DNA from: an uncultured Clostridia bacterium
GTDB taxonomy: Bacteria; Bacillota; Clostridia; TANB77; CAG-508
Length of the DNA stretch: 64,000 nucleotides
NCBI GenBank assembly: GCA_944386325.1
Contig: CALXAP010000003.1
Span: 2,488 to 66,487 of the forward strand
Reading direction: 5' to 3'
In this document: piece after piece, positions 3,495 through 55,047 of the stretch
How positions within the stretch are numbered: position 1 is the first letter of the stretch
Layout of the letters: each line of letters begins with the position of its first letter
Program-made: the position numbers and the translations under genes
The notes under the pieces: generated by a model
The model's input: only the letters and a program-made list of their open reading frames with translations
What the model was told of the DNA's origin: nothing
Database searches by the model: none

Positions 3495-3518
3495 TAAAAA
3501 TTAATATTGGAGGATAAA

Positions 3519-4076
3519 ATGAGAATAATAGAAAAAATAGCCTTGATAATTTTTTCTTATATAGTATTAATTTTATCTATTATAATGTGTTTATTAGTAT
3601 TTGGATGGTTAGATACAGAGTTAGTTAGAAATTTTATAGAAAATATAAAAATGAATTCTACTTTATCTGCAATAACTTTAGTTGTTTCAGTAATAGCAAT
3701 TTTATTAGCAATAAAATGTATATTCTTTGATTCTACTGGTAAAGAAATTGCAAAACAAAGAGAAGGAATACTATTAGAAAATACTGATGGAAAGCTATTA
3801 ATTTCAAAAGAGACTATAGAAAATCTTATTGCTTCTGTTGCAAAAGGTTTTGATGGTGCTGAAAATGTAAATAGCAAAGTATATGTAGATAAAGAAAACA
3901 ACTTAAGTGTTTATGTTACTTTATTTGTACATCCAGATGCAGTTATAAAAGATTTATCAAATAATTTACAAAATAAAATTAAAGAGGCTGTAAAGAAATC
4001 ATCAGATTTAGATGTTAAAGAGGTAAATATAAAAGTAAGAAATATTACTCAAGAAAAATCTGATATTCAGGAATAA
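3519..4076 (+). CDS. amaP: alkaline shock response membrane anchor protein AmaP-like
   Basis: N-terminal TM segments, located directly after asp23. ATG at 3519 follows GGAGG. Confidence 0.7.
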   Translation: MRIIEKIALIIFSYIVLILSIIMCLLVFGWLDTELVRNFIENIKMNSTLSAITLVVSVIAILLAIKCIFFDSTGKEIAKQREGILLENTDGKLLISKETIENLIASVAKGFDGAENVNSKVYVDKENNLSVYVTLFVHPDAVIKDLSNNLQNKIKEAVKKSSDLDVKEVNIKVRNITQEKSDIQE

Positions 4077-6748: not shown

Positions 6749-7192
6749 GTGGATTATTTTATAAGTTTTATTACTAATAAATATATTTTTATACCATTTT
6801 GTTTGTGGCTTGGAATACAAATTTTCAAAGTTTTATGGGACTATGGAAAATACAAAAAATTTAATTTAAAAAGATTTTTGGGAGCAGGAGGTATGCCAAG
6901 TTCTCATTCAGCAGTAGTTTGTTCTTTAGCTACATTAATTGGAAAAGAATATGGATTAGATTCTGCAATATTTGGTTTATCTGTTATATTTGCATTAGTT
7001 GTAATGTATGATGCTGCAGGAGTTAGAAGAGCTGCTGGAAATCAAGCAAGATTATTAAACAAAATAATAGAAAATCCAGAATTAAATGTACCAACCATTC
7101 AACAAGGAAGGTTAGTAGAAGGGTTAGGGCATAAACCAAAAGAAGTGTTTGTAGGAGCTCTAATAGGAATATTTGTTGGTGTATTATTATAG
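6749..7192 (+). CDS. divergent PAP2 family membrane protein (DUF212, acid phosphatase/vanadium haloperoxidase-related)
   Basis: Motifs GGMPSSHSA, MYDAAGVRR and GHKPKEV. Confidence 0.8.
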   Translation: MDYFISFITNKYIFIPFCLWLGIQIFKVLWDYGKYKKFNLKRFLGAGGMPSSHSAVVCSLATLIGKEYGLDSAIFGLSVIFALVVMYDAAGVRRAAGNQARLLNKIIENPELNVPTIQQGRLVEGLGHKPKEVFVGALIGIFVGVLL

Positions 7193-7209: not shown

Positions 7210-8871
7210 GTGAGTGATATTCAAATTGCAAGAAAAGCAAATCTTAAAAATATATTAGAAATAACTGAAAAATTAAAAATAGATGATAAATATATAAATC
7301 AATATGGAAAGTATAAAGCAAAAATATCATATGATATATATAGTAATATAAAAAATAATAAAAATGGAAAATTAATATTAGTAACATCTATTAATCCAAC
7401 TCCTATGGGAGAGGGAAAGACGACAGTATCAATTGGTTTAGCTGATGCAATAAATAGAATTAATAAAAATGTAATTTTAACTTTAAGAGAACCATCATTA
7501 GGTCCTGTATTTGGACTAAAAGGTGGGGCTACAGGTGGTGGATATGCACAAGTTGCACCAATGGAAGATATAAATTTGCATTTTACAGGTGATATTCATG
7601 CTATAACTTCTGCTAATAATTTATTATCTGCAATGATAGATAATCATATATATTTTGGAAATAAATTAAAATTTAAAAAAGTAATATGGAAAAGATGTTT
7701 AGATTTAAATGATAGAGCATTAAGAAAAGTAGAAATAAATTTAGAAGAAGGAAAAAAATATGTACCAAGGATTGATGGTTTTGATATATCTGTTGCATCA
7801 GAGATAATGGCAATATTATGTTTAGCAAAAGATTTAGATGATTTAAAAAATAGACTTTCTAACATTATTGTTGGATATAATGACATGGAAGAACCAATAT
7901 ATGCAAAAGATTTAAAAGCAGAAGGTGCAATGATTGTTTTACTTAAGGAAGCCTTTAATCCTAATGTTGTTCAAACATTGGAAAATACACCAGCCATTAT
8001 TCATGGTGGTCCATTTGCAAATATTGCTCATGGATGTAACAGTATAATAGCTACAAAAATGGCTTTAAAATTAAGCGATTATGTTGTAACTGAAGCTGGA
8101 TTTGGTGCTGATTTAGGTGCTGAAAAATTTCTAGATATAAAGTGTAGAATAGGAAATATTAAACCAGATGCTACTGTTTGTGTAGCTACTGTAAAAGCAT
8201 TGAAATATCATGGAGGAATGCCAAAGGAAGAGTTAAAAGAAGAGAGCATAGAATATTTAAAAATAGGTATAAATAATTTATTTAAACATATTGATAATTT
8301 AAAAAATAAATTTAATTTAAATGTAATTGTAGCAATAAATAAATTTGATACAGATACAGAAAATGAGATAAATTTTTTAACAGAAAAATTAAATGAAAAT
8401 AATATAGAAAACAGTATAGTAGAAGCATGGGGAAAAGGAAGTAAAGGAGCGATAGATTTAGCTCAAAAAGTAGTGAAATTATGTGATATACAATCAGATT
8501 TAAATTATATTTATGATTTAAATGATGATATATGCACAAAAATTAATAAAATATCTAAAAAGATATATGGAGCAGATGAAGTTGAATTTTCAGAAGAAAG
8601 TAAAAAAAATATAGAAAAAATTAATTCATTAGGATATGGAAATTTACCTGTATGTATAGCAAAAACTCAATATTCATTTTCTGATGATCCAAAGAATTTA
8701 AAATGTGATAAACCTTTTAAAATTCATATTAAAGATATAATTTTAAAAAATGGTGCTAAATTTATAGTAGCATTAGCAGGAAATATATATACAATGCCAG
8801 GATTACCAGAAAAACCAGCTGCCGAAGAAATAGGATTAGATGAAAATAATGATATTATTGGAATTTTTTAA
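7210..8871 (+). CDS. fhs: formate--tetrahydrofolate ligase
   Basis: Motifs INPTPMGEGKTT, EPSLGPVFGLKGGATGGGY and IHGGPFANIAHGCNS. Confidence 0.95.
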   Translation: MSDIQIARKANLKNILEITEKLKIDDKYINQYGKYKAKISYDIYSNIKNNKNGKLILVTSINPTPMGEGKTTVSIGLADAINRINKNVILTLREPSLGPVFGLKGGATGGGYAQVAPMEDINLHFTGDIHAITSANNLLSAMIDNHIYFGNKLKFKKVIWKRCLDLNDRALRKVEINLEEGKKYVPRIDGFDISVASEIMAILCLAKDLDDLKNRLSNIIVGYNDMEEPIYAKDLKAEGAMIVLLKEAFNPNVVQTLENTPAIIHGGPFANIAHGCNSIIATKMALKLSDYVVTEAGFGADLGAEKFLDIKCRIGNIKPDATVCVATVKALKYHGGMPKEELKEESIEYLKIGINNLFKHIDNLKNKFNLNVIVAINKFDTDTENEINFLTEKLNENNIENSIVEAWGKGSKGAIDLAQKVVKLCDIQSDLNYIYDLNDDICTKINKISKKIYGADEVEFSEESKKNIEKINSLGYGNLPVCIAKTQYSFSDDPKNLKCDKPFKIHIKDIILKNGAKFIVALAGNIYTMPGLPEKPAAEEIGLDENNDIIGIF

Positions 8872-32704: not shown

Positions 32705-32935
32705 GTTACAATTCACGGCTATATGATTTTGATATAATAATATTTCATAAATTTTTCGGCTCAATACGATATTTAAGAATTTGTAAAATAATTTAATGAG
32801 CCTCTTTCATTCAGGCTCAAAATCAAAGATTTTGCCCATGAACATTCCTCATTAAATTATATAACAAATTCTATAAACATCTCCAATCGCATTCAAAATT
32901 TATTCAATATTATTATATCAAATTCTTCATCTTGT
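32705..32935. repeat. palindromic intergenic repeat element A, full copy 1 (MITE-like; core 32728-32922)
   Basis: Terminal inverted repeats TTTGATATAATAATATTTCATAAATTTT / AAAATTTATTCAATATTATTATATCAAA. The whole element is an imperfect palindrome. No ORF. Confidence 0.85.
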
Positions 32936-34448: not shown

Positions 34449-34665
34449 GTTACAATTCACGGGAAAAGAATTTGATATAATAATATTTCATAAATTTTTT
34501 GGCTCAATACGATATTTAAGAATTTGTAAAATAATTTAATGCGACTCTTTCATTCAGGCTCAAAATCAAAGATTTTGCCCATGAATATTCCTCATTAAAT
34601 TATATAACAAATTCTAAAAACATCTCCAATCGCATTCAAAATTTATTCTATATTATTATATCAAA
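34449..34665. repeat. palindromic intergenic repeat element A, full copy 2 (core 34471-34665)
   Basis: Same orientation as copy 1. I count 6 mismatches over the 195-nt core. Confidence 0.9.
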
Positions 34666-34689
34666 ATCTATTAAACATAATATATAAAA

Positions 34690-34759
34690 AATCTAATAAA
34701 ATAGCTGTAGGGGAAAGCAGTGTTCGCCCGACCTACAGAGATATTTCTCAAAAAATTTA
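34690..34759. repeat. B-family GC-rich hairpin module
   Basis: AATAAAATAGCTGTAGGGGAAAGCAGTGTTCGCCCGACCTACAG, with an outer stem CTGTAGG/CCTACAG and the tail AGATATTTCTCAAAAAATTT. Confidence 0.8.
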
Positions 34760-34816
34760 AGATATTAATTCTACTTCTAAATAGTTACCAATAAAAAAAT
34801 AAAGTATAAAATACTA

Positions 34817-34845
34817 TTGATTTTATAAAATAATAGTGTTATTAT
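34817..34845 (+). promoter_or_regulatory. sigma-A type promoter of the valS leader
   Basis: TTGATT, a 17-nt spacer, then TATTAT, immediately upstream of the T-box Stem I. Confidence 0.45.
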
Positions 34846-44915: not shown

Positions 44916-45464
44916 TTGGAAGGTAAAGAAATAAAATACTATAAAAATGATGGAATACTAGATATAGAAAAAATAATTCAAGAATATAGTGCATATGTAT
45001 ACAAGATAGTAACAAATATTTCATTGAATAAATTATCTAATGAAGATATTGAAGAAATAATTTCAGATACATTTTTTATATTATGGAAAAATAAAGATAA
45101 ATTGTATGAGGATAGATTAATTAGTTCATATATAGCAGGTATTACAAAAAATTTGATTAAGGAAAAGTTTAGAAAAGTAAAGATAAATTCTAATATAGAA
45201 GATTATGAAAATAATATATTAGATTTTAGGCAGATAGATATGATATATGAACAAAGAGAAAAAATAAGAGTAATTGAAAAAATTTTAAAAAGTATGAAGA
45301 AAGAAGATATTGATATATTTAATATGTATTATTATTTAGGAATGAAAATAAAAGATATTTCAAATAAATTAAATGTTTCTGAATTTAAAATAAAATCTAA
45401 ATTATATAGAATAAGAAAAAATATAAGAAAAGAATTTAAGGAAGGTGGGTATAGTAATGAATAA
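44916..45464 (+). CDS. ECF-type sigma-70 family factor
   Basis: Region 2 (EEIISDTFFILWKN) and region 4 HTH (IKDISNKLNVSEFKIKSKLYRIRK). Confidence 0.8.
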   Translation: MEGKEIKYYKNDGILDIEKIIQEYSAYVYKIVTNISLNKLSNEDIEEIISDTFFILWKNKDKLYEDRLISSYIAGITKNLIKEKFRKVKINSNIEDYENNILDFRQIDMIYEQREKIRVIEKILKSMKKEDIDIFNMYYYLGMKIKDISNKLNVSEFKIKSKLYRIRKNIRKEFKEGGYSNE

Positions 45465-46578
45465 GAATTTAGAAAACTCAATAAAAGATAAGGTGAAATT
45501 AAAAATATCTATATCCAATTTCCAAAAGGAGGATATAGGGTATATGAAAAAAGGTAGTAGAAATATTATGAAGTCAGCAGCTGTAGCTTGCTTATTAGTA
45601 GTTTCTGTAACAGGAGTTGCTTTTGCAGGAAGTATTTCTGATTTTGTAAAAAATTTATTTGGATTTAATGTAAGTAATGGAGTAGATTCAGCTGTTGAAA
45701 ATGGTTATGTAGCAAATGTTAATACAGAATATCAAAATGCAGATGGAATTGAAATAAGTGTAGATTCAATGATAATGGATGATTTTAATTTCGCAATGAA
45801 TTTTAATGTGAAATTAGACTCTAATAAATATAAAATAGATGATTTTGAAAATATGACTTTTGAGGATTTAAAAATAGTAGATGAGACAGGAAAGATTGTA
45901 TTTAATACAAGAAGTGTTTTTGATACAGATGAAGAGGTAGAAAATTCATATAAAGGTTCTTACAGTATAGTTCCAACAAAGAAAAGTGATAGTGAAATAA
46001 TAGTTTATTTAACTGCGACAACAGGCAATACAGAAGAATTTCCTAAAAGTAAACATTTAACTGTTAATTTACCTAAAATAGTTATAAAGGAAAATGGATT
46101 AGAAGAAAGTAAAGCTATAGAATATGAAGGAAATTGGAAATTTGATATTGATGTTCCAAAAGATATATATAATAGAGAAACTATAATATATAAAGCAAAA
46201 AATTGTAGTGATAGTGGCATAAATATAGAAAATATAAATGCAGTTTTATCTGTTACTTCATTAAAAATATCAATTCCTGAAATAGTGACAGATAAGGTAG
46301 ATTATGAATTATATCGTGGTACGCCAACTAACATTAGTGATAAAATGGCAATTCAAAGAGAATATGTAGAAACATCAGATGGAAAAATATTCGAAACATC
46401 ACAAAGAAGTGACGGTGATGGAGGATATGGAGTACCAAAAGGGGAAAACAAAATAGTAGATTATCATCAAACATTCAATTTAACAAAATATGATGCGACA
46501 GACACAATAAAAGTTCACATGTTTACAAATAAAGGAGAGGAAATAATAATTGAATTAGAAAAAACAATATTAGAATAA
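45457..46578 (+). CDS. putative anti-sigma factor (DUF4179-like), single-pass membrane protein
   Basis: Overlaps the sigma gene stop by 8 nt. TM helix SAAVACLLVVSVTGVAFA. Beta-rich ectodomain. Confidence 0.65.
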   Translation: MNKNLENSIKDKVKLKISISNFQKEDIGYMKKGSRNIMKSAAVACLLVVSVTGVAFAGSISDFVKNLFGFNVSNGVDSAVENGYVANVNTEYQNADGIEISVDSMIMDDFNFAMNFNVKLDSNKYKIDDFENMTFEDLKIVDETGKIVFNTRSVFDTDEEVENSYKGSYSIVPTKKSDSEIIVYLTATTGNTEEFPKSKHLTVNLPKIVIKENGLEESKAIEYEGNWKFDIDVPKDIYNRETIIYKAKNCSDSGINIENINAVLSVTSLKISIPEIVTDKVDYELYRGTPTNISDKMAIQREYVETSDGKIFETSQRSDGDGGYGVPKGENKIVDYHQTFNLTKYDATDTIKVHMFTNKGEEIIIELEKTILE

Positions 46579-46670
46579 TGTATAATAATAGCAAATCGGA
46601 AAGTCTTATAATTAATATTAAATTTAAAATTTCACTTTGGCTTTCAGTAAATTTGTATAAAAGATAAACC

Positions 46671-46770
46671 GTGTAAGAAGGATATATATAATGATTCATT
46701 GTCAAAATGATAGCTGGGGTCTTCCTAAATGCCTTTGACTTCTAAATCATTATATATATCCTTCTTACAC
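46671..46770. repeat. perfect 26-bp inverted repeat around a 48-nt spacer
   Basis: GTGTAAGAAGGATATATATAATGATT at 46671-46696 and AATCATTATATATATCCTTCTTACAC at 46745-46770. The spacer holds an inner GTCAAA/TTTGAC stem. Confidence 0.9.
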
Positions 46771-46845
46771 TACTCTATTTATTAAAACAATATGTAAAAA
46801 GTTTGTAAATAATATAAGAAATTCAAAATTTGTTCAATATTAAAT

Positions 46846-46940
46846 CCTCCGGACACATGAGTATATTTAAAATAATCAAAAATTATTCACCATTCACTAT
46901 TCATTATTCACCGCAACCGAAGGTTGCACTCATAACCCTA
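46846..46940 (+). repeat. leader cassette C, copy 1 (ATG 46857, 4 ATTCAYY heptamers at 46885-46912, GCAACCGAAGGTTGC hairpin)
   Basis: Direct repeat of 47053-47143. Encodes MSIFKIIKNYSPFTIHYSPQPKVALITLP, ending at TAG 46944-46946. Confidence 0.85.
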
Positions 46941-46984
46941 CCATAGCAAAATACAATATTTAACACATATAAATAGTAGAAAAA

Positions 46985-47040
46985 CAGCTGTAGGGGCGAA
47001 CAGTGTTCGCCCGCGCTCCAAAGATATTTCTCGAAAAAAT
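46985..47040. repeat. B-family GC-rich hairpin module
   Basis: AGCTGTAGGGGCGAACAGTGTTCGCCCGC followed by AAAGATATTTCTCGAAAAAAT. Confidence 0.85.
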
Positions 47041-47052
47041 GAAAAACAAAAA

Positions 47053-47143
47053 CCTCCAAACACATGCGCATACTTAAATTATTCATCATTCACCATTCAC
47101 TATTCATCATTCATCGCAACCGAAGGTTGCAGTCATAACCCTA
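47053..47143 (+). repeat. leader cassette C, copy 2 (ATG 47064, 5 ATTCAYY heptamers at 47081-47115, GCAACCGAAGGTTGC hairpin at 47116-47130)
   Basis: Lies 207 bp downstream of copy 1. It runs directly into the in-frame TM-anchor coding sequence of the LRR gene. Confidence 0.85.
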
Positions 47144-47221
47144 ATCCTGCTACTAATACTAGCAGGGCTAACAATAAGCTACATAACAGGAGGGGGCTTA
47201 ATAGACAAAACACAGGTTGCA

Positions 47222-48388
47222 ATGAACGAATATGAAAATGCAGATAAAAAACAGCAAGATATAATAGATGAAATAAACGAAAAAAATAAAGAAGAAATAG
47301 ATCTAGAACCAGTATATAGTGAAGAAGGAGCAGAAGACAATATAGCACCAGCAGATTTATTTGAATATGAAATAATAAATGATGGGTCAGTTGCAACAAC
47401 ATATATGGATAAATTGCCAACAAAAACAGTAAGAATAAAAGGAATAAAACCAGAATATTGTAATGTAAATGGATATGATCCAATAAAAGATGAAACAAAT
47501 CCAGAATTAACAAATACATTTTATGAAATAATTTATAATGGAAACAAAATAGAAGATGTATTAATTATACCATATGAGGTAGAATTAGATGAAAATGCAA
47601 ATGTAACAGAAAATGGAGAAATGTATAAAGTAACAGAAGTAGATTTGTCTGTTATATCACATTATTCATATATGGATCGAAAATATGGTTCAGTGTTTCC
47701 AGATGTAAAAAAAATAGTATATCCTAATACAGTAGAAAAAATAAATATAAGAAATGATTATTCTATTACATTATATGCAGGAAATAATCAATTATCAACT
47801 AAACCACAAGAGTTTATATTGTCTAGAAGTTTAACTAACATACCGAATTATACATTTGCAGCCTGCAAAGATTTAAAAAGTATAGATATACCAGATAGTG
47901 TAACAAGCATAGGAAATTATGCATTCAATAGAGCTGGTATAACAAATATAAAGATATCAGATAGTGTAACGAATATAGGTAGTTATGCATTTTCAGAGTG
48001 TGATGCATTAAATAATATTATTATACCATATGGAGTAACAAGTATAGAAAATGGTACATTTTCAGATTGTTCTTCATTAAGTAATATTATAATACCAAAT
48101 AGTGTAACCAATATAGGTGATTATGCATTCAGGTGGTGTGATAAATTAAATAATATTATTATACCTGATGATGTAACAAGCATAGGAGAAAGTGCATTTG
48201 ATAGCTGCAATTCATTAAATAGTATAGTAATACCAGATAGTATAGAATATATAGGAGACGGTGTTTTTTGGGATTGGGAATCTAATCAAACAATATATTT
48301 TAAATGTCCAGAAAGTAGCTCAGAAAATTGGGATCCTAATTGGGATAATGGTTGCGATGCAAAAATAGTTTGGGATTATAAGGAATAA
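47222..48388 (+). CDS. BspA-type leucine-rich repeat surface protein; the true 5' end is unresolved
   Basis: Repeats IPDSVTSIGNYAF, ISDSVTNIGSYAF, IPYGVTSIENGTF, IPNSVTNIGDYAF and IPDDVTSIGESAF. ATG 47222 has no RBS, and the frame stays open back to 47078, encoding a TM helix. Confidence 0.8.
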   Translation: MNEYENADKKQQDIIDEINEKNKEEIDLEPVYSEEGAEDNIAPADLFEYEIINDGSVATTYMDKLPTKTVRIKGIKPEYCNVNGYDPIKDETNPELTNTFYEIIYNGNKIEDVLIIPYEVELDENANVTENGEMYKVTEVDLSVISHYSYMDRKYGSVFPDVKKIVYPNTVEKINIRNDYSITLYAGNNQLSTKPQEFILSRSLTNIPNYTFAACKDLKSIDIPDSVTSIGNYAFNRAGITNIKISDSVTNIGSYAFSECDALNNIIIPYGVTSIENGTFSDCSSLSNIIIPNSVTNIGDYAFRWCDKLNNIIIPDDVTSIGESAFDSCNSLNSIVIPDSIEYIGDGVFWDWESNQTIYFKCPESSSENWDPNWDNGCDAKIVWDYKE

Positions 48389-48522: not shown

Positions 48523-50748
48523 ATGGACAAAAAAAATATTATAGATAAAATAGGCTTTTTTGTAATTATAGTTACAATTATAATGTTAAATATGTTTATA
48601 GGTTCTAATATAAAAGAACCTATATGGATAATACAAGCAATAGTAAGTGCATTTACAGCAATTTATTTAATCATCAAAAAAATTCAAAAAACAAAAAATA
48701 TTATTATAAAACGAAAAATAGATATAGCAGTACTAGTTTTTATGATTTCTACTACGATACCTTTAATTTTTAATACATATGTATCACTTGAGGGAACAAT
48801 AAATTTTATATTAAAATATTGGTCTATTTATGGATTATATATTTTAGTAAACAATATAGTAATTGGCGATAATAAGAAAATAAATATAGTAGTAAATACT
48901 CTTATTTTTTCTTCAGTAATAGTAATAATTTTTGGATTTGATAAATTTACATTTAATATTTTTACAAAAATATATGAGATATTAAATTCTGTTAATATAG
49001 AAGATACTAGAATGATTTCAACATTTGGTTATGCAAATACTTTGGCTGCATATTTAAGCTTTGTAATAGTATTAGCAATTGGGCAATTTGTCAAAAATAA
49101 AGATAATATAAAAAATAGAATAATATATGGTATATATATTTTATTAGCTATAATAACTATAATATTAACACAATCAAAAATGGTTTTAGCAATAGATGCC
49201 TTAATAATTTTACTTTTTATTATATTTCAAATAAAAAATAAGAAAATATCTAAAAAATGGATTTTCGTAGGAATAATAGGAATAGAATTATTTTTTATTT
49301 ATTTTCTTATAGCTATAAATATAGATAAACCTTTAGTTGTTACTGATGAAGAGAAAACATGTGTAATAAGAGGAATAGAATCTAATATAGATTATAATTT
49401 ATATTTTAATATAGATGCAAACACAGATAAAACATATGATGTTTTTAAGATAAAAATAGTTGAGGTAAATAGATATTTTACAGAAAAAGTTCTTGCAAGA
49501 TTTAATTTAGGGGATTTTACAGGCACAAAAAGTTTAAATATTCATACAGGGGATTTAGTTGATCATATAGAAATAAGAATTGAAAATGAATTAAATCAAG
49601 AAATAACAATAAATGATTTTAGAATAAATGGAAAAAAATATATACTTGAGTATAAAATAATACCAGAGCCATTAGTAAGAGTATTTACAACATTTAATTT
49701 TAAAAACTCAAGTGTATGGCAAAGAGCAGATTTCTGGCAAGATAGTTTAGATATAATAAAGGATAATTGGGTATTTGGAGCAGGCGGAAATGCTTGGAGA
49801 ATGTTATATGGACAAGTACAAGATTATTTATATTATGCGAAAGAGGCACATTCATATATATTAGAAGTATGGATGTCATTTGGTATAGTGGGAATAGCTA
49901 GTTATATAATTATAATTATATTAACTATAAAAAGTGTTATAAATATTTTTAAGAAACAGGATAAAAAGAATAATAATATTTTAATTATTGCTATAGGATT
50001 AAGTATAATTTTGATTCATTCTTGCATGGATTTTGATATGTCATATTTAATTATAGAAATGATTGTATTTATGTTTATAGCAATATTAAACAAAGATGAA
50101 ACTGAAATTAAATCTGATTTGAAAATTATAGATATAATAATTTCAATTGCTTTTCTAGCAGTAGGAATAGGAAATATTTTAGGTTTGGTAGCAGATAATA
50201 TAAAAGATGAAAATATGTATTATGGAAATAAGTTAGCTAGTTGGGTAAGTAAATATAATTATAATGAAATAATTTACTATGAAAATAACAATATTCAAGA
50301 TGAAGATAAAATAAATAAAATTAAGAAATTCATTAAGGAAGAACCATATTTATATCAAAATATTATGTATGAAATCATGTCAAATCAAATTATAAAAGAT
50401 TTTAACAATGGAAATATAGATAGAGCAAAAACTAATATAGATTATTTAATTAATGTGTTAAATAATGTAAAAGTGGAAAGAATTTATGAAATAGAATCAA
50501 TACAAAAAAGATCAGAAATATTATTAAATTTGTCTCAAAGTTTAGATACATTATATAAAGAAACACAAGATGATTATTATAAAAGTACTATGGAAAAGGT
50601 TATAGATATTATAAAAAAAGATTATGAAAAATATAGATATAAAGCATATGATTTTGAAAAATCACAATTTGATGAATTGATAACACAATATAAAATAGAG
50701 TTTTATGATAGAACATATAATGATGCATTAAATTTATTAGGTAGTTAG
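48523..50748 (+). CDS. O-antigen ligase/polymerase (Wzy_C) family membrane protein with a long C-terminal soluble extension
   Basis: Many TM helices. The AHSYILEVWMSFGIVG motif is typical of Wzy_C. The extracytoplasmic insertion and ~200-aa helical tail are my inference. Confidence 0.75.
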   Translation: MDKKNIIDKIGFFVIIVTIIMLNMFIGSNIKEPIWIIQAIVSAFTAIYLIIKKIQKTKNIIIKRKIDIAVLVFMISTTIPLIFNTYVSLEGTINFILKYWSIYGLYILVNNIVIGDNKKINIVVNTLIFSSVIVIIFGFDKFTFNIFTKIYEILNSVNIEDTRMISTFGYANTLAAYLSFVIVLAIGQFVKNKDNIKNRIIYGIYILLAIITIILTQSKMVLAIDALIILLFIIFQIKNKKISKKWIFVGIIGIELFFIYFLIAINIDKPLVVTDEEKTCVIRGIESNIDYNLYFNIDANTDKTYDVFKIKIVEVNRYFTEKVLARFNLGDFTGTKSLNIHTGDLVDHIEIRIENELNQEITINDFRINGKKYILEYKIIPEPLVRVFTTFNFKNSSVWQRADFWQDSLDIIKDNWVFGAGGNAWRMLYGQVQDYLYYAKEAHSYILEVWMSFGIVGIASYIIIIILTIKSVINIFKKQDKKNNNILIIAIGLSIILIHSCMDFDMSYLIIEMIVFMFIAILNKDETEIKSDLKIIDIIISIAFLAVGIGNILGLVADNIKDENMYYGNKLASWVSKYNYNEIIYYENNNIQDEDKINKIKKFIKEEPYLYQNIMYEIMSNQIIKDFNNGNIDRAKTNIDYLINVLNNVKVERIYEIESIQKRSEILLNLSQSLDTLYKETQDDYYKSTMEKVIDIIKKDYEKYRYKAYDFEKSQFDELITQYKIEFYDRTYNDALNLLGS

Positions 50749-50756
50749 GAGAAAAT

Positions 50757-51506
50757 ATGGAATATGTAGATATTATAATGCCTGCATATAATTGTGAAAA
50801 ATATATTAAATTTGCAATACAGTCTGTAAGAAAACAAACTATAAGTAATTGGAGATTAATTATAATAGATGATAAATCTACAGATAATACTGTTAAAGAA
50901 ATCGAAAAGGCTATAAATAAAATAGAAGAAAAAGTAGTATTTATAAAATTAGATAAAAATAGAGGTGTTGCAAATGCAAGAAATGTAGGTATAAATAATT
51001 CGAGAAATAGATATATTGCTTTTTTAGATGCTGATGATATATGGAGAGAAGATAAATTAGAAAAACAATTAAACTATATGAAGAAAAATAAATATATTTT
51101 TACATATACATCATATAGATATTTAAAAAATTCAAAGTATAAAAATATAAAAAAAATGCCAAAATATTTAAGTTATAAGTCAGCATTAAAAAATACTTTT
51201 ATATTAACTTCTACAGTAATAATAGATACAAGAAATATACGAAAAAATGAGTTAATTATGCCTAATATAGGAAGTGAAGATACAGCTACTTGGTGGAATA
51301 TATTAAAAAATGGATATACAGCATATGGATATAATGAGATTTTAACAACATATAGAATTACTAAACATGGGTTATCATATAATAAATTTATTAATATAAG
51401 AAAAACATGGAATTTGTATAGAAGAAATGAAAAGTTAAATATATTTAAATCTACATATTATTTTTTAAATTATATATATAATGCCGTAAAAAAAAGAGTT
51501 GTATAG
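50757..51506 (+). CDS. glycosyltransferase family 2
   Basis: Motifs IIMPAYNCEKYI, IDDKSTDNT and FLDADD. Confidence 0.9.
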   Translation: MEYVDIIMPAYNCEKYIKFAIQSVRKQTISNWRLIIIDDKSTDNTVKEIEKAINKIEEKVVFIKLDKNRGVANARNVGINNSRNRYIAFLDADDIWREDKLEKQLNYMKKNKYIFTYTSYRYLKNSKYKNIKKMPKYLSYKSALKNTFILTSTVIIDTRNIRKNELIMPNIGSEDTATWWNILKNGYTAYGYNEILTTYRITKHGLSYNKFINIRKTWNLYRRNEKLNIFKSTYYFLNYIYNAVKKRVV

Positions 51507-51513
51507 GTGAGAA

Positions 51514-52341
51514 ATGGAAAAAAATATAGAAGTTTTATTATCAGTTATGAATATAAAAAATAAGGAAGAATTTAAAGAGAAAATAAAAGAAAATAATATT
51601 AAATCAAATGTATTAGCAATAAATCAAGTTAATAATATTAAATATAAATTTGATTATGTAGAAAAAAATAAATGTATATATTCATATATGGAGAGGGGAG
51701 CAAGCAATAGTAGAAATAGATTGCTTGAAAATGCAAATGGTGATATTTGCATTTTTGCAGATGATGATGTTGTATTTGATAACAATTACGAAGAAATAAT
51801 TATTAATGAATATGATAAAAATCCTGATGCTGATATTATAGTATTTTATGTTAAAAGTATGGGAAAAGAAAGAGAGAAAAATAAAAAAATAGGAAATAAA
51901 AAAATAAATAGCTTAGATATTATGAGAGTTAGAGCATATGAGGTTGCTTTAAAAAAAGATACTATAGAAAAAATAAAAAAGAATAATATAAAATTTGATA
52001 AAAATTTTGGCCCAACAGGTATATTTAAAAAAGGTGAAGAGACAATATTTTTCTCAGATTTATATAGAAAAAAATTTAAAATGTATAGTAGTAATAAATT
52101 AATAGGAATAGTAAGACATGGTGAGAGTTCATGGTTTAAAGGATTTAATAAAAAGTATATGTTCGATCAAGGAGCTATATTTTATAGAATGAATCCTAAG
52201 TTATATAAATTATTAATATTACAATATATAATAAGAAAATTTAGCTTATATAATAAAAATATGAGTATGATTCAAGCATATAAGTATATGCTTATAGGTT
52301 CTATTAAATGTAAAAAAATATATGGAGAGAAAAGTGATTAA
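51514..52341 (+). CDS. glycosyltransferase (GT-A fold)
   Basis: Motifs GASNSRN and FADDDV (DxD). Confidence 0.65.
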   Translation: MEKNIEVLLSVMNIKNKEEFKEKIKENNIKSNVLAINQVNNIKYKFDYVEKNKCIYSYMERGASNSRNRLLENANGDICIFADDDVVFDNNYEEIIINEYDKNPDADIIVFYVKSMGKEREKNKKIGNKKINSLDIMRVRAYEVALKKDTIEKIKKNNIKFDKNFGPTGIFKKGEETIFFSDLYRKKFKMYSSNKLIGIVRHGESSWFKGFNKKYMFDQGAIFYRMNPKLYKLLILQYIIRKFSLYNKNMSMIQAYKYMLIGSIKCKKIYGEKSD

Positions 52342-53392
52342 TAAATTAATTAGTATAATTATTATTGTATATAATACAAAGGAAGAATATTTAAGAAGAG
52401 CTTTAGAAAGTGTGTTAAATCAGACAATCAGGGATATAGAGATTATTTTAGTAAATGATGGTTCTGATAAAAATACGACTGATATATGTAAAGAATATAG
52501 TACAAAAGATAAACGAATTAAATTGATAAATCAATCAAATATGGGAGAATCTGTTGCGAGAAATGTTGGAATAGAAAATTCAACAACAGAATATATAACT
52601 TTTTTAGATAGTGATGATTGGTTAGAACCAAATATGTGTGAAGATTTAATAAAATACATAAATGAAATAAATGCCGATTTTGATATAATAGTTTTTAATT
52701 GTTTTGTTAATATTAATAAAAAACAATATAAAAATGAATTTTATTGTAAAAATGGATTATTAAATAAAAATGATATAGAAGATTTGCAGCTTCAAAACAT
52801 AGAAAAAGGCATTTCTAAATATTATCCATCAAAAGTAAATGTTTCAGTTGTTTGGTCAAAAGTATATAATAAAAATTTTATAATAGAAAATAATTTAAAG
52901 TTTATACCAAATGTAGTAAGAATGCCTGATGCAATATTTAATATGTATGCTTTAGAAAAGGCAGAAAAAATATATGTATTAAATAAATATTTGTATCACT
53001 ATAGGATAAATAGATATTCTATAACACAGAAATTTTCTATTAATACAATAAATTATTTTGAAACATATATAGAGTATGTAAAAAAGTATATAATTGAATA
53101 TAAAAAAAATAAAAAATTTGAAGATATACTTAATATAAAGATATTTACAAGTATAGATAATTATATGACAAATTATTTTTTTCATAATGATAATAATAAA
53201 AATAGAAAAACTCTAAAAAAAGAATTTATAAACTTATTAGATAAACCATTATATAAGGATGCCATAAATAAAATAAAAAAAGAAAGATTATCTTTATATC
53301 AAAGATTAGTTTTAAAATATGTAATTAAAAAAAATTTTTTTGTATTAAAAATACTTAAAAAAATAAAAAGTATAATAAAATCATTAATATAG
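52322..53392 (+). CDS. glycosyltransferase family 2
   Basis: Motifs SIIIIVYNTKEEYL, VNDGSDKNT and FLDSDD. The start may be GTG at 52334. Confidence 0.9.
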   Translation: MERKVINKLISIIIIVYNTKEEYLRRALESVLNQTIRDIEIILVNDGSDKNTTDICKEYSTKDKRIKLINQSNMGESVARNVGIENSTTEYITFLDSDDWLEPNMCEDLIKYINEINADFDIIVFNCFVNINKKQYKNEFYCKNGLLNKNDIEDLQLQNIEKGISKYYPSKVNVSVVWSKVYNKNFIIENNLKFIPNVVRMPDAIFNMYALEKAEKIYVLNKYLYHYRINRYSITQKFSINTINYFETYIEYVKKYIIEYKKNKKFEDILNIKIFTSIDNYMTNYFFHNDNNKNRKTLKKEFINLLDKPLYKDAINKIKKERLSLYQRLVLKYVIKKNFFVLKILKKIKSIIKSLI

Positions 53393-54708: not shown

Positions 54709-54769
54709 AGCTATTTCTCAAAAAAATTATGCAATATTAATATATAAAAAAATATAAATCATAACATAG

Positions 54770-54833
54770 AAAAATCCAATAAAATAGTTGTAGGGGCGAA
54801 CAGTGTTCGCCCGCTCAACGAAGGTATTCTTCC
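54770..54833. repeat. B-family GC-rich hairpin module
   Basis: AATAAAATAGTTGTAGGGGCGAACAGTGTTCGCCCGCTCAACG, with outer GTTG/CAAC pairing. Confidence 0.85.
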
Positions 54834-54884
54834 AAAAATTTATTCAATATTATTATATCAAAATCTTTATCTTGTGAACAGTAA
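54834..54884. repeat. solo right end of repeat element A
   Basis: AAAATTTATTCAATATTATTATATCAAAATCTTTATCTTGT matches 32894-32935. Confidence 0.8.
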
Positions 54885-55047
54885 ATAAAATATAACATGT
54901 TCTCCTGAAATTTTATAATATAATTATTGACAAAAAAATATAATATGATATATTTTTAAATTGTACAATTTACAAATAATATTAAAAATATTATTAATAT
55001 GAAAAAATTTAACAGGAAATAATATCTGTTAAAAAGGAGAATTAAAA

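Follow-up and report, generated by a model that had tools for sequence, protein, structure and literature searches.

We analysed a 64,000-nt stretch of an uncultured Clostridia bacterium (contig CALXAP010000003.1; hereafter the window), which carries a gene for a BspA-type leucine-rich repeat (LRR) surface protein. Compared with P0001 and the complete alleles, this gene lacks codons 1-16, the Shine-Dalgarno (SD) sequence and the conserved upstream region, a putative promoter. With a probability that we put at roughly 0.6, the LRR gene is a silent allele without promoter and start, made by recombination at an integration hotspot and not by slippage of the heptamer repeats in front of it. The upstream region would have built up from decayed integrative elements that accumulated at an integration site within the gene, and expression would depend on whether the gene-adjacent unit carries a promoter and a start. 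The evidence base comprises the window and assembled contigs from different samples and strains.

47135-48388, plus strand: 5'-truncated coding sequence of a BspA-type LRR (LRR_5) surface protein, corresponding to codons 17-433 of the complete orthologue P0001.
47222-47224, plus strand: ATG taken mechanically as the start of the open reading frame (ORF); internal Met46 of the complete protein, without SD, and Ile in family member P0008.

P0001 scored 182.7 bits against PF13306 (LRR_5), for which the cut-off is 27.7, placing it in the BspA-type LRR class. In the ORF listing of the window, ATG 47222 is the first ATG, GTG or TTG in the LRR frame, which remains open back to TAA 47075-47077 and encodes IIHHSPFTIHHSSQPKVAVITLILLLILAGLTISYITGGGLIDKTQVA on the way. 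The original prediction had described this open extension as the membrane anchor of a gene without a start codon. Both points hold. The extension matches the native anchor of relatives from Ile17-Thr18 on and so amounts to only the distal two-thirds of the native signal anchor.

A protein search with the extended protein, in which the matches were read, revealed 15 family members that start M(Y/N)K(N/D/K)T(K/N)E(K/N)GITLV.LVITII.LLILAG. The family N-terminus, MYKNTKEKGITLVVLVITIILLLILAG(I/L)TISYITGGGLIDKTQVAMNEYEN, begins with a short leader rich in Lys and continues into a hydrophobic helix of pilin-like type, with relatives opening as MYKNTKEKGITLVVLV-ITIILLLILAG, and the extension in the window fits it only from Ile17-Thr18 on (ITLILLLILAGLTISY). 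The prepilin signal G↓(F/M)TL(I/L)E (PF07963/TIGR02532) gave no N_methyl-type match to P0001 in Pfam or NCBIfam; the P0001 leader reads KG↓ITLVVL, position +5 being Val or Ala in place of Glu. "Pilin-like" accordingly denotes a resemblance of the anchor sequence and nothing further.

Two complete alleles, L001 (encoding P0001, a 98.7% identical protein) and L003, match the window at 97% nucleotide identity downstream, over up to 8.4 kb, and therefore represent the same locus in other strains. The sole structural difference is a segment of about 185 nt, absent from the window, which in L001 and L003 lies between an E-type repeat unit (described below) and the anchor codons. In order, this module contains a TATAAT box within a conserved upstream region whose end is GGGATATAAT, then the SD AAAGGAGAG, and finally the ATG with codons 1-16 (MYKNTKEKGITLVVLV); its putative promoter role is assigned from conservation and position. 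Neither tblastn nor a motif scan detected any MYKNTKEKGITLV (MYKNTKEKG-type) coding sequence on either strand of the 64 kb. The lost start is consequently not one of the two upstream ATGs to which the original prediction had looked, since the same-locus allele (L001, L003) and the 15 family members start MYKNTKEKGITLVVLV with SD AAAGGAGAG.

Two simpler switch designs were considered and rejected. An invertible promoter (fim-like, or of the Clostridioides difficile cwpV type) or another nearby inversion fails because the module is absent, not inverted, on both strands of the 64 kb. A single promoter serving many genes fails because several paralogues (L006, L008) each have a start of their own together with the conserved upstream region, the putative promoter.

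The position at which homology to intact genes begins coincides with a short repeated core, and two non-coding units precede it.

47135-47143, plus strand: core ATAACCC(TA), the start of homology to intact genes, at codons Ile17-Thr18 of the complete protein.
46941-47143, plus strand: cassette B (unit E2), with a 203-bp period and direct repeats ATAACCCTA at 46932-46940 and 47135-47143.
46842-46940, plus strand: cassette A (unit E'), with CCTCC, ATG 46857, four heptamers (46885-46912) and the hairpin GCAACC-GAA-GGTTGC (46913-46927).

The core ATAACCC sits within the Val-Ile-Thr codons of the anchor, and related loci revealed elements inserted at it. L007 and L008 are versions of one locus that differ by a 5111-bp insert in L007, flanked by the 7-bp repeat ATAACCC and situated directly beside an E unit. 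The insert encodes a tyrosine integrase (PF00589), a helix-turn-helix protein and ATPases. Its gene-facing end reads SD-ATG AAA AAC ... GGT ATA ACT TTA ATT GCA TTA GTT/ATAACCC, which translates as MKNNIQNKGITLIALV-IT, and the attachment site of the free element (attP) was reconstructed as GCATTAGTT-ATAACCC-TTTTCATGC.

Two further integrase lineages, at 65-69% identity, occupy the equivalent codon, with the core ATAACAA (L030, L033) or at the same codon position (L036). Elements of these lineages have the displaced chromosomal 5' coding sequence on one side and an element SD with MKRNIQNNGITLIALVIT on the other, the latter fused to at least three downstream sequences. At one end of the L033 element the chromosomal SD and 5' coding sequence were left behind (...GCATTAGTG/ATAACAA/AACTCATGC), and at the other the element's MKRNIQNNGITLIALV-IT is fused to the remainder of an intact pilin-like gene. 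One element end is joined to different downstream sequences in L030, L033 and L034, and the integrase end in L036-L041 lies immediately next to the displaced start MKLNLRKEKGITLVALIVT. On the evidence of these junctions, ATAACCC/ATAACAA is the crossover core of three tyrosine-integrase element lineages that hit anchor codons and bring an SD and the first ~17 codons with them. The cargo of the elements varies between L030-L035 and L036-L041: one, of about 4 kb, carries a RelB/YafQ toxin-antitoxin pair, and the other, of more than 9 kb, carries a primase (DUF927), SNF2 helicase fragments and a DNA methylase. Many of the L030-L041 contigs break precisely at the element end that faces the target gene.

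Gene-less units are found at the same core. L005 differs from L046 by a 127-nt hairpin element without genes (H), located between E and the anchor codons and accompanied by a 9-bp duplication of ATAACCCTA; the flanks are 100% and 97.9% identical, making this an occupied/empty pair at the core. Occupied and empty versions of the site with a short core duplication thus exist for both L007/L008 and L005/L046. Unit E2 of the window is bounded by the identical 9-mer ATAACCCTA, at 46932-46940 and 47135-47143, and cassette B would accordingly have the layout of an integrated gene-less mini-element. Stacks of such att-bounded units beside the target gene, each 127-203 bp long and without a conserved ORF, occur in the window, L002 and L012 (E'-E2) and in L005 (E1-H). 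The sequence resemblance to full-length elements is short: at the right ends, TTGCAYTA-ATAACCC of E is similar to TTGCATTAGTT-ATAACCC of L007, and at the left ends, TTTTCGTGC of the L001 module is similar to TTTTCATGC of L007.

This arrangement also accounts for the leader duplication in the original prediction. Between the two cassettes, identity reaches 93% over one stretch of 59 nt and 78% over another of 37 nt, and because E2 is bounded by the 9-mer of H, the "duplicated leader" is the preceding unit of a tandem array of att-bounded mini-elements. The spacing of 207 bp is correct 5' of the heptamers; 3' of them a 4-nt indel reduces it to 203 bp, so that a deletion fusing ATG 46857 to the anchor frame would remove 203 bp and not 207. 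Among the alternatives offered at the outset, a recombinational ON/OFF difference came closest, but the difference found at the locus is the ~185-bp module and not a cassette-to-cassette deletion of 203 or 207 bp. Cassette A ends in the 9-bp core repeat ATAACCCTA (46932-46940), and its left edge is uncertain, possibly lying at about 46773.

The internal parts of the units are as follows.

47081-47115, plus strand: tandem array of five ATTCAYY heptamers, belonging to unit E2 and non-coding.
47116-47130, plus strand: hairpin (inverted repeat) GCAACC-NNN-GGTTGC, with an invariant stem and a loop of GAA, AAA, TCC, TCT or TTC.
46990-47011, plus strand: perfect hairpin GTAG-GGGCGAAC-AGT-GTTCGCCC with a GTAG tag, a dispersed repeat within unit E2 that resembles repetitive extragenic palindromes (REPs).

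Comparison across loci defined unit E as an optional GTAG-tagged GC hairpin, a spacer, 2-7 heptamers, GCAACC-NNN-GGTTGC and A(G/C)(T/A)C-ATAACCC. The E2 unit and its junction are also present in L002, L009 and L012, and the E'-E tandem at another locus (L002, L012-L014). E units precede start-less LRR genes at other loci (L002/L012-14, L005/L046 and L009, the last twice), are found 5' of the expression module where the gene is complete (L001, L007/L008), and in L004 stand alone with no LRR gene after them. Because the unit also occurs upstream of the putative promoter in complete genes (L001, L008) and where there is no LRR gene (L004), the heptamers are non-coding. Heptamers, small hairpin and both ATGs are thus best described as parts of a non-coding unit of about 200 bp.

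Tandem Repeats Finder returned 5.0 copies of the 7-nt unit at 47081-47115 and 4.0 at 46885-46912, in agreement with the tracts reported originally, and the hairpin GCAACCGAAGGTTGC, for which shuffles give an expectation of 0, has exactly two occurrences in the window. The reading frames are likewise as described: ATG 47064 lies outside the LRR frame and reads MRILKLFIIHHSLFIIHRNRRLQS through the five heptamers and the hairpin GCAACCGAAGGTTGC to a stop at 47136, and ATG 46857 of the second cassette reads MSIFKIIKNYSPFTIHYSPQPKVALITLP to a stop at 46944. The heptamers are stop-free in every frame, and the ORFs that begin at the E-unit ATGs are unconserved across copies. The invariant stem with its free loop suggests a structural or protein-binding constraint rather than a coding one. 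Both strands of E, a candidate source of a small RNA, fold no more than modestly better than shuffles (z -3.3, -2.8). TTGCA, the 3' arm of the hairpin, is similar to the core-type half-site on the left of the integration site.

A coding role for unit E was rejected: the long ORF of P0009 begins at a GTG within the REP-like hairpin and is broken in other copies (TAA 47075 in the window, and L012). A 41-amino-acid (aa) ORF on the minus strand, a weaker candidate gene, is not conserved. Unit E and the LRR gene do not form a mobile gene cassette either, as sequences 3' of LRR genes share only ordinary terminators. A scan of Genome Taxonomy Database species representatives for E found one metagenome-assembled genome with two loci. 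No E ends were detected in viral contigs, where only the GTAG hairpin occurs, and two E patterns had no match in Joint Genome Institute metagenomes. An Rfam scan of 46000-48000 matched the cassettes to no family, with only spurious sub-threshold microRNA-hairpin matches, to a 26-bp inverted repeat further upstream (46671-46770). About 100 nt upstream of E', two adjacent TTATCCACA motifs, DnaA-box-like, occur in L012 (5515-5550) and also in L002 (620-650).

The GTAG hairpin has a distribution of its own. Copies occur at 54790-54811 of the window, in L003 and L012, in L016-L019 and, ten times, in one 20-kb viral contig (L015/L020); the sequence is almost invariant across the low-GC genome, several IMG/VR viral contigs and one GC-rich viral contig. 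Phage copies are often trailed by 7-nt repeats of their own (ATGAATT, TTATGAA). An exact-sequence literature search for the hairpin found no paper. A second GTAG-hairpin region (L003 7664-7866, equivalent to about 54720-54920 of the window) matches window positions 34638-34834 and 32895-32935 at 73-95% identity, so the window holds further copies of a related intergenic repeat.

The breakpoint itself recurs. The junction E-ATAACCC-TAAT..TG.TACTAATA.TAGCAGG was found at no fewer than five loci (at least the window, L002/L012, L005/L046 and L009, there twice), and the segment ATAACCCTAAT..TGCTAC accompanies E at every locus. To the left of 47135 the window is unrelated to the complete alleles; 47135-47153 consists of diverged anchor codons, with 7 differences in 25 nt; and from 47154 the window is 100% identical to L003 (L003 167-234 corresponding to window 47154-47221).

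47146-47166, no strand assigned: near-perfect palindrome CCTGCTACTA-A-TACTAGCAGG in the anchor coding sequence, with the changeover at the centre of CCTGCTA-CTAATAC-TAGCAGG.

A second recombination boundary thus appears to lie inside the palindrome, about 19 nt to the right of the core. Composition sets the anchor segment apart as well: CTA and CTG account for every one of the six Leu codons in 47135-47170, whereas genes of the window use TTA at 76%, CTA at 6.4% and CTG at 0.4% (CTA and CTG together 6.8%), and GC content in the segment is 38-42% versus 24% in the window. This composition points to a foreign origin or a constraint at the DNA level. Over the cassette and anchor region as a whole, GC content is 34-42%, again versus 24% for the window, with a negative GC skew. 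Two superimposed events may be recorded here, namely an integration-type joint at ATAACCC and a boundary ~19 nt further in, either site-specific or homologous.

The silent state would have arisen by recombination at the core, the expression module having been lost or never acquired. Reversal would be possible only through recombination with a complete paralogue or allele, or through integration of an element that brings a start. The module may itself be a decayed element end.

Several results weigh against this interpretation. The activation product that it predicts, an LRR gene of the subfamily with an element-type leader joined to it, was not found among 43 candidates. A tblastn search for an L007-type integrase found nothing in the 64 kb, the enzyme (PF00589) being present only at related loci. 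On its right side the module has the core ATCACAA or ATTACAA, in which 3 of the 7 bases depart from ATAACCC, and this degeneracy renders clean excision of the module by an integrase doubtful. Near-identity begins only at 47154, 19 nt past the core, a position that general recombination or gene conversion could explain equally well. A consensus sigma-70 scan of the module called no promoter, and unit E may derive from a decayed element arm or from some other repeat.

The same results bear on a more far-reaching alternative, programmed and reversible cassette exchange, in which integrases acting in trans would move att-bounded cassettes, including a promoter-plus-leader cassette, and so turn LRR genes ON and OFF within a population. 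The occupied/empty pairs for the 5.1-kb integrase element and the 127-nt mini-element favour it, as do upstream arrays that differ completely between strains 97% identical downstream, the SD and leader exon at the gene-facing end of full-length elements, the similarity between the L001 module left end and the L007 left end, and the high share of start-less genes that are intact. On the other side, the ON and OFF states are known from different strains or samples, the 64-kb window has no integrase, the right core of the module is degenerate and the predicted fusion is missing from the 43 candidates. Contig breaks near the cassettes, considered as a sign of population heterogeneity, were discarded because the broken region is multi-copy and such repeats account for the breaks. 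We regard this alternative as improbable, though deserving of more weight than slippage.

Equally improbable in our estimation is an ordinary pseudogene, formed by a one-off deletion of promoter and start, with no re-expression and with the repeats as unrelated clutter. The gene as found, without start, SD or promoter, fits this view, and the family decays elsewhere in a birth-and-death fashion (L009 1681-1800, L012 around 7450, L006 around 7100). The window gene itself is uninformative: it differs from P0001 by 19 substitutions, too few to test decay, with a neutral probability of no stop of 0.24. The pattern across the family is harder to reconcile with a single deletion, as an identical junction recurs at five or more loci and the breakpoint is a demonstrated integration core.

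Among the top matches, 26 family members were recognised, 15 complete and 11 start-less (~40%). The start-less genes are called from MNEYEN... or from chance starts within E, all have intact ORFs, most lack a close complete partner, and across the 11 the 5' block is nearly identical and the C-terminal block conserved. The original prediction's option of a simple decaying pseudogene is disfavoured by this set of 11 distinct genes. L002 and L012, start-less alleles of one locus, differ by ~200 substitutions without a stop codon (dS 0.35, dN/dS 0.53), and a dN/dS of 0.5 among start-less alleles equals that between complete genes. In simulation, 100 random substitutions leave the ORF open with a probability of 7.5e-4, giving the L002/L012 pair a neutral chance below 1e-3. 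Since these alleles are intact after ~200 substitutions, start-less genes are not simply decaying in isolation. They may be expressed periodically, exchange with expressed copies, or have been silenced recently and repeatedly.

Remnants and rearrangements at related loci were also recorded. Orphan promoter, SD and 5' coding-sequence remnants (MKKEKYIIKNKGITLIALIITIK and a stop) end at the core-equivalent codon in L012 (~7430-7480) and L006 (~7080-7130), and read as the reciprocal relic, a start without a gene. L009 (3727-5701, with 1681-1800 and 3509-3657) contains a cassette and junction, a heavily deleted LRR 5' remnant and an intact gene for a 434-aa protein that has a pilin-like anchor and matches nothing in Pfam; at its next LRR gene an IS21-family insertion splits the E'-E array. 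At the junctions of L002, L012 and L009, TTG replaces CTG 47147 of the window and is taken as a start by some gene callers, yielding MLLILAG... proteins (P0242-P0244, P0246), database entries that are probably artefactual calls. Within L003 144-1209, aligned to window 47131-48202, the central LRR region is ~80% identical between flanks at 97-100%, a mosaic that suggests recombination among family members.

Slipped-strand switching, in which one more 7-nt unit would fuse ATG 47064 to the anchor frame, was the mechanism put forward first and is now very unlikely. It has in its favour that the unit is not a multiple of three, so that one extra copy joins the frames, that E copies at different loci, old paralogous copies, carry 2-7 heptamers, and that phase variation by simple sequence repeats is documented for BspA-like genes of Candidatus Mycoplasma girerdii (PMC5476646). 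Both ATGs (47064, 46857) are however preceded by CCTCC and not by an SD, exactly as first reported, and the orthologue starts MYKNTKEKG with SD AAAGGAGAG. In complete genes the tract precedes the putative promoter, at one site it occurs with no LRR gene after it, and the ORFs from the E ATGs are unconserved. A check of heptamer number across assemblies of this allele returned five units in all three independent assemblies (window, L021 and L029), and the ON/OFF difference at the locus is a 185-nt module elsewhere.

A collapsed or chimeric repeat in the assembly can practically be set aside: many metagenome contigs do break between the anti-sigma and LRR genes in this multi-copy region, but L021 (a 60.9-kb contig) and L029, from other samples and studies, are base-for-base identical to window 46579-47230, five heptamers included, at least seven further places are similar, and the same junction type occurs in L009, whose "tig" name suggests a long-read assembly.

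The genes flanking the LRR gene form a cell-surface neighbourhood. Upstream (44916-46578) lie a sigma factor of the extracytoplasmic-function type and its DUF4179 anti-sigma partner; downstream (48523-53392) lie a Wzy_C O-antigen-ligase-like gene and three GT2 glycosyltransferases. All 51 long ORFs of the window share one orientation. Between the anti-sigma gene and the cassette array there is one further feature, preceded by ATAAACC.

46671-46770, no strand assigned: perfect 26-bp inverted repeat, with arms at 46671-46696 and 46745-46770, 48 nt between them and 100% complementarity.

This inverted repeat may terminate the operon or represent a further mini-element of the hairpin type. Several metagenome contigs have an end within or close to it, and a single base, 66 nt past the anti-sigma gene, is where four Logan contigs stop.

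If silent and complete states interconvert, the locus would represent an undescribed route of surface-protein variation in gut Clostridia. Its boldest form, to which we assign only a small chance, would be an inverted integron: an integration site in anchor codons, stacked elements with 130-200-bp derivatives at a 7-9-bp core, and a gene-adjacent cassette that sets ON or OFF. One derivative type would then carry promoter, SD and the first 16 codons, and surface variation would be generated. Three results stand even without reversibility: a family of integrative elements specifically targets the 5' anchor codons of pilin-like-anchored genes and brings a replacement start, very small gene-less derivatives (127-203 bp) accumulate at the integration site, and ~40% of the retrieved members of an adhesin-like family are start-less but intact. 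For annotation, the 388-aa ORF from ATG 47222 and many MNEYEN... database entries would be truncated calls for silent genes.

Several known systems share parts of this architecture. In Neisseria, silent pilS copies lack the promoter, the ribosome-binding site and the codons of the conserved hydrophobic N-terminus. The silent copies described here similarly lack promoter and 5' coding sequence, have conserved 5' and 3' blocks around a variable centre and form mosaic alleles; unlike pilS, they are full-length genes at their own loci, many with their own start. No dedicated expression locus or unidirectional gene conversion of the pilE/pilS kind was found, the mosaicism between L003 and the window being only suggestive. 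In the vsa genes of Mycoplasma pulmonis and the vpma genes of Mycoplasma agalactiae, a tyrosine recombinase switches 5' ends by inversion between clustered genes. A recombination site in the 5' coding sequence, silent genes without promoter and first codons, and a tyrosine recombinase are common to both cases, whereas here no inverted copy of the module is present in the window, the 51 long ORFs are co-oriented and the events are insertions or deletions.

The opa genes of Neisseria vary in phase through the coding repeat CTCTT, and dinucleotide tracts do the same in BspA-like genes of Ca. Mycoplasma girerdii (PMC5476646). Shared features are a tandem repeat, in units not divisible by three, close to the 5' end of a surface gene and, with girerdii, the BspA-type LRR target class. 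The present tract differs in three ways: no functional start precedes it, it lacks conservation as a coding sequence, and its length is constant among assemblies of the allele. GTAG-tagged REPs were surveyed in 2013, with no mention of Firmicutes (PMC3733652). The 46990-47011 hairpin resembles them in its unpaired 5' GTAG, the perfect GC-rich palindrome that follows and its many dispersed copies; it differs in occurring in low-GC Clostridia and viral contigs, groups unmentioned in that survey, and in being one component of E2. No RAYT transposase was seen near the hairpin, and no search for one was made.

Integrons hold arrays of short cassettes bounded by a recombination core, which a tyrosine recombinase moves and whose expression depends on position. 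Short cassettes bounded by a core and expression tied to the position of cassette and promoter are features of both, but the logic here would be inverted, with genes fixed and small cassettes, one type of which has a promoter and start, mobile. No IntI-type integrase or attC structure was identified.

Overall, the system appears to work most like the stacking in tandem of decayed integrative elements (CIMEs) at the att sites of integrative and conjugative or integrative and mobilizable elements, as in the ICESt1 family of Streptococcus thermophilus (PMC5704250). Both involve a tyrosine integrase and a short core duplicated on integration, gene-less derivatives that keep att-flanked ends, tandem stacking of elements by the target gene, and an element end that replaces the displaced end of that gene. 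They differ in their target, here the 5' signal-anchor codons of a multigene surface family and not the 3' end of a housekeeping or tRNA gene, and in the units, which here are tiny (127-203 bp), with an element end that supplies SD and start codon. What is unusual, as far as these sequences indicate, is an att site in the 5' signal-anchor codons of an adhesin-like family, where an element end supplies the start. Because that end brings SD and start, occupancy of the site would decide whether the target gene can be expressed.

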